Sequence record: OP557969.1
Origin: Escherichia phage ph0011
Length of the DNA stretch: 64,000 bases
Reading direction: 5' to 3' (one strand)
Within the stretch, counting starts at the first letter, position 1. Every line of letters starts with the position of its first letter. The notes under the pieces are model-generated. The model was not told where the DNA came from and made no database searches. It saw only the letters and a list, made by a program, of their open reading frames with translations. Shown one piece after another: positions 2,732 to 3,235 of this stretch. Position numbers and translations under genes: made by a program.

Positions 2732-3235
2732 ATGAAATCTATTATTGCCAATAACGAAATCACCGCAAAAACTGTCCGTCTCGTAACGGAAGGAACCAGT
2801 GAGGTAATGGCAATCTCTAAAGCACTAACTTTGGCAGAAAATCAAGGTTTGGATTTGGTAGTTATCGGTACTGGCGACGAGCCTGTTGTAAAAATTACCG
2901 ATCTTAACAAATACAAATACGAATTGAAACAAGCAGAAAAAGCATCTCTTAAAAAACAGCGTCAGAATGCAATTAGTGTTAAAGAGATTCAATTCAATTT
3001 TGGTACACACGAACATGATTTGAAAATTAAAGCAAAAAGTGCAGAGAAATTCCTAGATGAAGGAAAGCATGTGCATATTGTGATGAAAACTTCAGGACGT
3101 GGAACGAATGCATCTGTAATTCAATCAAATATTAATGCAATGGAATCATTCGTTAATCGTTTGGGTAACGTTTCATATGTTCAAAAAGTAGAGTTCCAAG
3201 GTAAGAAGGTAACCTGTACTGTCAAAGTAAAATAA
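2732..3235 (+). CDS. infC: translation initiation factor IF-3 homolog
   Basis: 167 aa; colinear similarity to bacterial IF-3 (EI.A..VRL.......G..S..EAL.LAE..GLDLV.I.....P.V.....Y..K.E..K......K..K.Q....VKEI.F). Confidence 0.7.

Follow-up and report, generated by a model that had tools for sequence, protein, structure and literature searches.

The stretch of DNA analysed here (hereafter the window) spans 64,000 nucleotides of Escherichia phage ph0011 (sequence record OP557969.1) and holds an open reading frame that is an intact, full-length, two-domain phage copy of the bacterial translation initiation factor IF-3. The gene is preceded by a predicted sigma-70 promoter and a Shine-Dalgarno sequence, and is followed by genes for a ClpS-like and a KTSC-domain protein (Table 1).

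Table 1. Coordinates of the IF-3 gene, its parts and its surroundings in the window, with the basis of each assignment.
Feature	Position	Strand	Basis
Predicted sigma-70 consensus promoter (perfect), TTGACA-17 nt-TATAAT	2659-2687	+	12/12 matches
Shine-Dalgarno sequence, GGAG	2718-2721	+	Read from sequence, 10 nt 5' of ATG
IF-3 (infC-like) coding sequence	2732-3235	+	167 aa, ATG start, TAA stop at 3233-3235
IF3 N-terminal domain, aa 7-71	2750-2944	+	Pfam IF3_N, 1tif fold match, residue table
Lys-rich helical linker, aa 58-79	2903-2968	+	DSSP helix 58-79 in model, alignment
IF3 C-terminal domain	2972-3226	+	Pfam IF3_C, secondary structure, 1tig match
Divergent proofreading loop, K119-T120-S121-G122-R123-G124	3086-3103	+	Ungapped alignment between flanking invariant glycines
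ClpS-like protein	3249-3794	+	13 nt downstream of IF-3; Pfam ClpS 5e-4, below cut-off; PHROG 15940; weak PDB ClpS alignment
KTSC-domain protein	3868-4413	+	Pfam KTSC 1.4e-13; conserved neighbour
Intrinsic-terminator-like hairpin and T-run	6769-6798	+	Consensus match only; first downstream of the IF-3 promoter

The first-pass annotation had proposed an IF-3 homolog from motifs aligned by eye, and this assignment is borne out by Pfam, by TIGR00168, by sequence matches in the PDB and by the predicted fold. A lack of IF3-domain profile matches, which had been named as grounds for giving the homology up, is not what we found, as both Pfam domains were matched significantly (IF3_N, 3.7e-17, 62.7 bits against a cut-off of 26.9, aa 7-71; IF3_C, 1.6e-13, 50.8 bits against a cut-off of 34.8, aa 81-165). 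The infC equivalog model of NCBIfam (TIGR00168) scored 111.6 bits (3.3e-32; cut-off 60), that is at equivalog level, over a colinear alignment of phage aa 6-154 with model positions 7-154, and PHROG 9787 (‘translation initiation factor’, 1.7e-70) aligned aa 1-167 with profile positions 1-167 of 168. The top matches of the PDB sequence search were all IF-3 of model bacteria, colinear across both domains. The motifs read by eye proved genuine too: the phage N-domain stretch aligns with NGEIRAQEVRLT of E. coli, and SVKEIQF in the C-domain with E. coli QVKEIKF.

An AlphaFold2 model, computed from a 45-sequence alignment (mean pLDDT 89), was matched by Foldseek to the 30S-bound IF-3 of T. thermophilus (5lmn_X, TM 0.70), to the isolated C-domain (1tig, TM 0.84, rmsd 1.9 A) and to the N-domain (1tif, TM 0.77, rmsd 2.2). 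The DSSP elements of the modelled C-domain are E83-89, H94-109, E113-119, H127-144, E147-155 and E159-166; the linker is two residues longer than that of E. coli IF-3 and carries Y63, the equivalent of E. coli Y75. Thus, the phage protein shares with bacterial IF-3 (E. coli InfC; T. thermophilus, 5LMN-5LMV) the two domains, the Lys-rich linker, the fold and the charge (pI 9.52 versus 9.54 and net charge +7.9 versus +7.6, phage and E. coli, respectively, at 30% identity); unlike the E. coli protein, it has no basic N-terminal tail. The gene is under strong purifying selection (dN 0.022, dS 0.54 and dN/dS 0.04 against the orthologue of phage 121Q). The intact reading frame, this dN/dS value and the conservation of the gene in 94 phage records rule out a pseudogene or relic.

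At the DNA level, the IF-3 region shares 91% identity with the 121Q/PBECO4 group of Escherichia jumbo phages (Asteriusvirus, here ‘RaK2-like’). Orthologues occur in the 94 phage records and in 37 metagenomic clusters; in the phage records, tblastn recovered the protein at amino acid identities of 95% (121Q, PBECO4, Sharanji, slurp01), 70% (Klebsiella RaK2, K64-1), 58% (Cronobacter GAP32, Serratia BF, Erwinia and Yersinia phages), 51% (Xanthomonas XbC2) and 34-40% (a Vibrio phage, Agrobacterium Atu_ph07, Sinorhizobium Phosso). The nearest relatives outside the RaK2-like phages (44-51% identity) are encoded by metagenomic contigs 90-619 kb long and without bacterial names, presumably other jumbo phages. 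The RaK2-like copies (121Q gp47, PBECO4, Sharanji gp294, RaK2 ORF153, GAP32_313, CBB; all PHROG 9787) are orthologues that share with the window copy its length, flanking genes, promoter position and KxxGR loop, and differ from it by sequence divergence only (~88-91% nucleotide identity to the nearest deposited genomes). As a separate observation, the first 25 kb of the window share ~88% DNA identity with their closest deposited counterparts (UE-S1, UB, JP4, SP27), which makes the phage a rather divergent member of the group, and the window probably represents a species absent from the August 2025 phage collection.

At the level of annotation, phage IF-3 is already known: most of the 94 records carry the label, annotated orthologues date back to RaK2 and GAP32, a PHROG exists, and the literature mentions the gene. 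The translation genes listed for huge phages include IF1 and IF3 together with bS21, bS1, uS4 and bL12 (Al-Shayeb et al. 2020; PMC7162821), and the window copy belongs to this jumbo-phage pattern; bS21 is absent from the window and adjoins IF-3 in the Vibrio phage and on one metagenomic contig. Iyer et al. mention phage IF-3, with ribosome rescue as a suggested role (PMC7824862), and the description of phage Sharanji holds that the function of IF-3 in phages ‘cannot be definitively stated’ (PMC11895373). The searchable literature yielded no experiments on a phage IF-3. That such a protein directly manipulates translation initiation in the host, as put forward in the first-pass annotation, is plausible and has likewise been speculated upon (PMC7824862, PMC11895373, PMC7162821).

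A recent capture from an enterobacterial host is ruled out by the low identity to E. coli IF-3 (30%) and by the placement of the nearest relatives on contigs without bacterial names; the best bacterial matches quoted in the RaK2 and GAP32 records come from unrelated phyla. The order of genes (Dda helicase, two small ORFs, IF-3, ClpS-like, KTSC, further genes, topoisomerase II) is kept from Asteriusvirus through Alcyoneusvirus and Mimasvirus to the Vibrio phage and a metagenomic contig, in which IF-3 itself is only 38-46% identical, and this conservation across phage genera points to long vertical inheritance rather than to recent acquisition from a host. The gene had been described as sitting among early replication genes, which is roughly right for the wider setting (RNase H and a Dda-like helicase upstream, topoisomerase II downstream) but not for the immediate neighbours, which are two unknown/‘structural’ ORFs, the ClpS-like protein and the KTSC-domain protein.

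Every RaK2-like phage that we examined has the IF-3/ClpS-like/KTSC order. In the Vibrio phage (2.275.O), IF-3 and the ClpS-like gene are separated by an inserted bS21 gene; the gene immediately upstream of IF-3 encodes a ClpX-like ATPase in Atu_ph07, Phosso and one metagenomic contig, and on this contig bS21 and ClpS are also found nearby. The linkage of IF-3 with Clp components, KTSC and bS21 could reflect either a functional module or merely an inherited gene order. The ClpS-like protein itself matches Pfam ClpS only below the cut-off, at aa 74-140, behind a 70-aa N-terminal extension, and its equivalents in some relatives are annotated under the shared bL12-C/ClpS-like superfamily; judged by these similarities, it may be either a protease adaptor or a ribosome-related protein.

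The same linkage bears on a reading in which the phage factor is a spare part, replacing host IF-3 whenever the initiation machinery is inactivated, degraded or sequestered, perhaps together with the ClpS-like and KTSC proteins. The persistence of Clp components and bS21 beside IF-3 in distant jumbo phages would suit such a role, as would the ribosome rescue suggested in the literature (PMC7824862), but the linkage may reflect nothing beyond inherited gene order. We consider a counter-defence or stress-escape spare, called upon by such triggers as abortive-infection toxins or hibernating ribosomes in slow-growing cells, very improbable. To our knowledge no defence system that targets IF-3 has been described, which also counts against it.

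The predicted promoter (12 of 12 consensus positions) ends 44 nt before the ATG, measured from the end of the -10 hexamer. Its sequence is the same in 121Q, and sigma-70-like sites lie at equal distance in RaK2 (TTTACT-17-TATAAT), GAP32 (TTGACT-16-TACAAT) and XbC2 (TTGACG-17-TACCAT), so that the position of the promoter is conserved across Asteriusvirus, Alcyoneusvirus and Mimasvirus. From this consensus match we infer that the site would function as a promoter and that the IF-3 gene would be transcribed early by the host RNA polymerase. Since the ClpS-like gene starts 13 nt past the IF-3 stop codon, at least this gene is probably co-transcribed with IF-3, and transcription may end at the terminator-like hairpin further downstream. 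Just before the IF-3 promoter, another promoter-like site close to the consensus (TTGACA-17-TATGAT, 2463-2491) overlaps the start codon of a 64-aa ORF (2468-2662).

The regulatory context of the host gene is not reproduced in the phage. Host IF-3 represses its own synthesis through the non-canonical start codon of infC, which is ATT in E. coli, where the gene belongs to the thrS-infC-rpmI-rplT operon and is followed by rpmI and rplT. The phage gene lies outside such an operon, is flanked by phage genes and starts with ATG, and therefore should escape the AUU-start autoregulation that limits host infC. A search for regulatory RNAs near the IF-3 gene returned none, the Rfam matches in the window being seven tRNAs only.

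Contact residues were compared in an alignment of the window protein with E. coli IF-3 and 186 full-length relatives. Loss of the conserved C-domain residues required for 30S binding had been named as a second way in which the homology could fail; most contact residues are retained, several as Arg-to-Lys exchanges, but the equivalents of Arg99 and Arg131 are uncharged. In the N-domain, E. coli R25 is conserved (phage R16) and R66 is replaced by lysine (phage K54), the commonest residue there in other IF-3s (125 of 141 representatives). These representatives are taxonomically unlabelled and were chosen by similarity to the phage protein; three PDB model organisms were compared in addition. In bacterial IF-3, R25 and R66 contact the elbow of the initiator tRNA, and R25 is invariant in bacteria (PMC9723500). 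Conserved as well is Y75 (phage Y63), which by cryo-EM stacks on h23 of the platform and whose mutants lose fidelity (PMC5037330). K94, E95, D106 (phage D96), K110 (K100), G121, G132 and R133 (R123) are also retained, and by alignment K100, D96 and R123 match residues that touch the 30S subunit in bacterial IF-3. The C-domain exchanges R112K, R116K, R129K and R168K (E. coli numbering) fit a protein with 22 lysines and four arginines encoded by an AT-rich genome; Y70 and Y107 of E. coli are both Leu in the phage protein, a residue that is also common in other IF-3s. We regard the protein as very probably a genuine IF-3 that would act on host 30S subunits.

The segment that departs from this pattern is the loop that in bacterial IF-3 faces the start codon, where phage K119-T120-S121-G122-R123-G124 corresponds to E. 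coli R129-F130-R131-G132-R133-E134 and does not carry the basic-131 motif RFRGR, a functional sub-feature of the factor rather than a membership criterion of the Pfam/TIGRFAM models. Position 131 is non-basic (S/T/V/A/I/Q/N/E) in 38 of 38 RaK2-like sequences, in which G132 and R133 are kept, the F130 position holds T/A/I/Q/M/L/V and the E134 position is mostly G or P. Among the 141 similarity-chosen other representatives, R or K occupies position 131 in 119 and a large hydrophobic residue (F, L, M or Y) position 130 in 127. The position of Arg99 is N89 in the phage protein, and is variable in other IF-3s too.

Structural and genetic work on the bacterial factor assigns a role to these positions. 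By cryo-EM, Arg91, Arg123 and Gly124 of T. thermophilus IF-3 (E. coli 99, 131 and 132) lie against A+1, U+2 and +4 of the start codon region, Arg131 contacting +2 to +4 (PMC5037330). In E. coli, R131P, or replacement of RFRGR by the mitochondrial KKGK, loosens the discrimination of non-AUG starts, leaderless mRNAs and 3GC-mutant initiator tRNA, and the IF-3 of mycoplasmas, which use such signals, has P, F or Y at 131 (PMC11775629). The phage factor resembles these fidelity-relaxed variants in that the Arg131-type contact is lost or altered, and differs from them in that the substituting residues are small or polar; it is also devoid of the N- and C-terminal extensions of the mitochondrial factor (IF-3mt).

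Unlike the window copy, the IF-3s of more distant huge phages have a bacterial-type loop ([RF]F[KR]GR in Atu_ph07, Phosso and LR756500, i.e. RFKGR in the first two and FFKGR in the third; KFKGR in P0042; KLKGR in P0038), with intermediate forms in the Vibrio phage (RLHGR) and LR756501 (FFSGR). Because these distant phage factors are of the bacterial type, the change would have arisen within the phage lineage and then have become fixed in the RaK2-like clade.

These comparisons allow two readings besides an altered proofreading. In the first, the gene is a plain capacity booster with host-equivalent fidelity, which by raising the ratio of IF-3 to ribosomes favours phage messages with strong Shine-Dalgarno sequences and AUG starts and speeds recycling, the change of the loop being neutral drift. 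All other key residues are conserved or exchanged from Arg to Lys, the lysine-rich composition fits the AT bias, and phage genes have canonical starts, all as this reading expects. The AT bias, however, would account for the Arg-to-Lys exchanges and not for the clade-wide pattern at 130, 131 and 134: the non-basic residue at 131 and the loss of F130 and E134 in 38 of 38 sequences stay unexplained, and the other former Arg positions use Lys. We deem mere capacity unlikely, although by no means negligible.

In the second, the phage protein is a dominant-negative agent of host shut-off, which occupies the IF-3 site of the 30S subunit and fails at a later step, so that host initiation is blocked (or host infC is derepressed or repressed) and phage messages escape. 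The loss of the codon-proximal arginines and the unregulated expression predicted from the strong promoter and AUG start could be read in this way, but the protein keeps the tRNA-elbow and linker residues on which productive initiation depends, and no escape route is visible because phage mRNAs share the Shine-Dalgarno and AUG signals of the host. Such an activity seems to us very improbable.

The start signals of the phage genes bear on what an altered factor would act upon. The first-pass annotation had connected IF-3 with apparent non-ATG starts and with overlapping start-stop junctions, and neither connection is upheld. The GTG at 57766 makes a plausible start of the ordinary kind, with AGGAG 6 nt upstream, and as GUG is (like AUG and UUG) a canonical start accepted by IF-3, it has no bearing on the function of the factor. 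Start-stop overlaps are ordinary in phage operons, and nothing was found that ties them to the IF-3 gene. We saw no unusual start-codon usage in the window, a crude gene call giving 119 ATG, 6 TTG and 4 GTG starts (~92% ATG) with a caller that miscalls some starts, including that of IF-3, and is blind to non-canonical ones; the starts called were mostly accompanied by Shine-Dalgarno-like sequences. Leaderless phage mRNAs were likewise not found in the window, where strong promoters are mostly followed by a Shine-Dalgarno-led ATG located 30-48 nt past the end of the -10 hexamer. Since the phage genes thus look canonical, a relaxed proofreading would be without an obvious client.

A phage-encoded tRNA-Met(CAT) (46839-46913) was considered as an initiator partner of the factor and rejected, given its G1:C72 pair and an anticodon stem (C29-G41/G30-C40/G31-C39) without three consecutive G-C pairs; by these features it would be of the elongator Met or the tRNA-Ile2 (lysidine) type.

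Taking the evidence together, we favour, with moderate confidence, a functional and vertically inherited phage orthologue of IF-3 that would be made early and without feedback, would supplement or displace the host factor, and would probably proofread less strictly or differently. In this scheme the host RNA polymerase would transcribe the gene early from its own consensus sigma-70 promoter, and translation from the Shine-Dalgarno sequence and AUG would bypass the AUU-start autoregulation of host infC. The product would then bind the host 30S subunit at the IF-3 site, next to or in place of host IF-3, thereby keeping subunits dissociated and recycled and accelerating the formation of 30S initiation complexes on ordinary Shine-Dalgarno-led phage mRNAs. 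Because the RFRGR loop reads KTSGR and the Arg99 equivalent is Asn, its proofreading of the start codon and of the initiator tRNA would probably be weaker than, or different from, that of the host factor. Host IF-3 is already abundant, which counts against the benefit of an extra copy, and the loss of Arg99 and Arg131 could simply lower activity.

A more far-reaching proposal is that RaK2-like phages carry a proofreading-altered IF-3 (Arg131, Phe130, Glu134 and Arg99 lost) that, expressed early and free of autoregulation, out-competes host IF-3 and shifts the range of start sites or initiator tRNAs accepted by the ribosome; this we put forward tentatively, as possible but doubtful. Such a factor may be part of a module for the take-over of translation and proteostasis, together with the ClpS-like and KTSC proteins and, in distant relatives, bS21 or ClpX.

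Start-site fidelity and the splitting of 70S ribosomes are controlled chiefly by IF-3. What appears to be new here, as judged from sequence comparison, is a separately promoted, AUG-initiated phage IF-3 gene, the apparent loss throughout a clade of the Arg131-type proofreading contact, and the repeated occurrence of phage IF-3 beside genes for Clp components (ClpS-like or ClpX-like), KTSC and bS21. A conserved IF-3 that has its own promoter, is free of the AUU feedback and has a changed start-codon loop makes for a concrete and cheap hypothesis, as the reporters and complementation systems needed to measure IF-3 fidelity are already available in E. coli. If proofreading is altered, the gene would show clearly how a virus can reprogramme initiation in bacteria by means of a paralogue of one of its factors; if it is not, the gene would mainly add IF-3 capacity.

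Promoters like that of IF-3 are frequent in the window: 22 sites with at most one mismatch to TTGACA-N17-TATAAT were found, all on the + strand and seven of them, that of IF-3 included, perfect, versus 2.2 expected by chance. Examples lie at 18417, 35964, 38371, 43197 and 54807, and the + strand carries ~120 of the ~129 predicted genes. Judged by its promoters, the whole window looks like an early/middle region driven by the host RNA polymerase.

Two identical promoter-like sequences of 29 nt (TTGACTAAATAGTTCAGTACTGATATAAT) occur in the tRNA region, at 45050-45078 and 46701-46729, the second ending 11 nt before a tRNA-Ser gene, an arrangement that suggests a duplicated tRNA transcription unit. 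This tRNA (46740-46831, type II) scores lowest among the seven in Rfam (49.9 bits) and has an anticodon loop (CUACUAA) with the anticodon ACU (Ser, A34), which is unusual for bacteria and phages alike. The related phage Sharanji is reported to encode a tRNA adenosine deaminase (PMC11895373), so that an A34-to-inosine editing of the window tRNA is conceivable.
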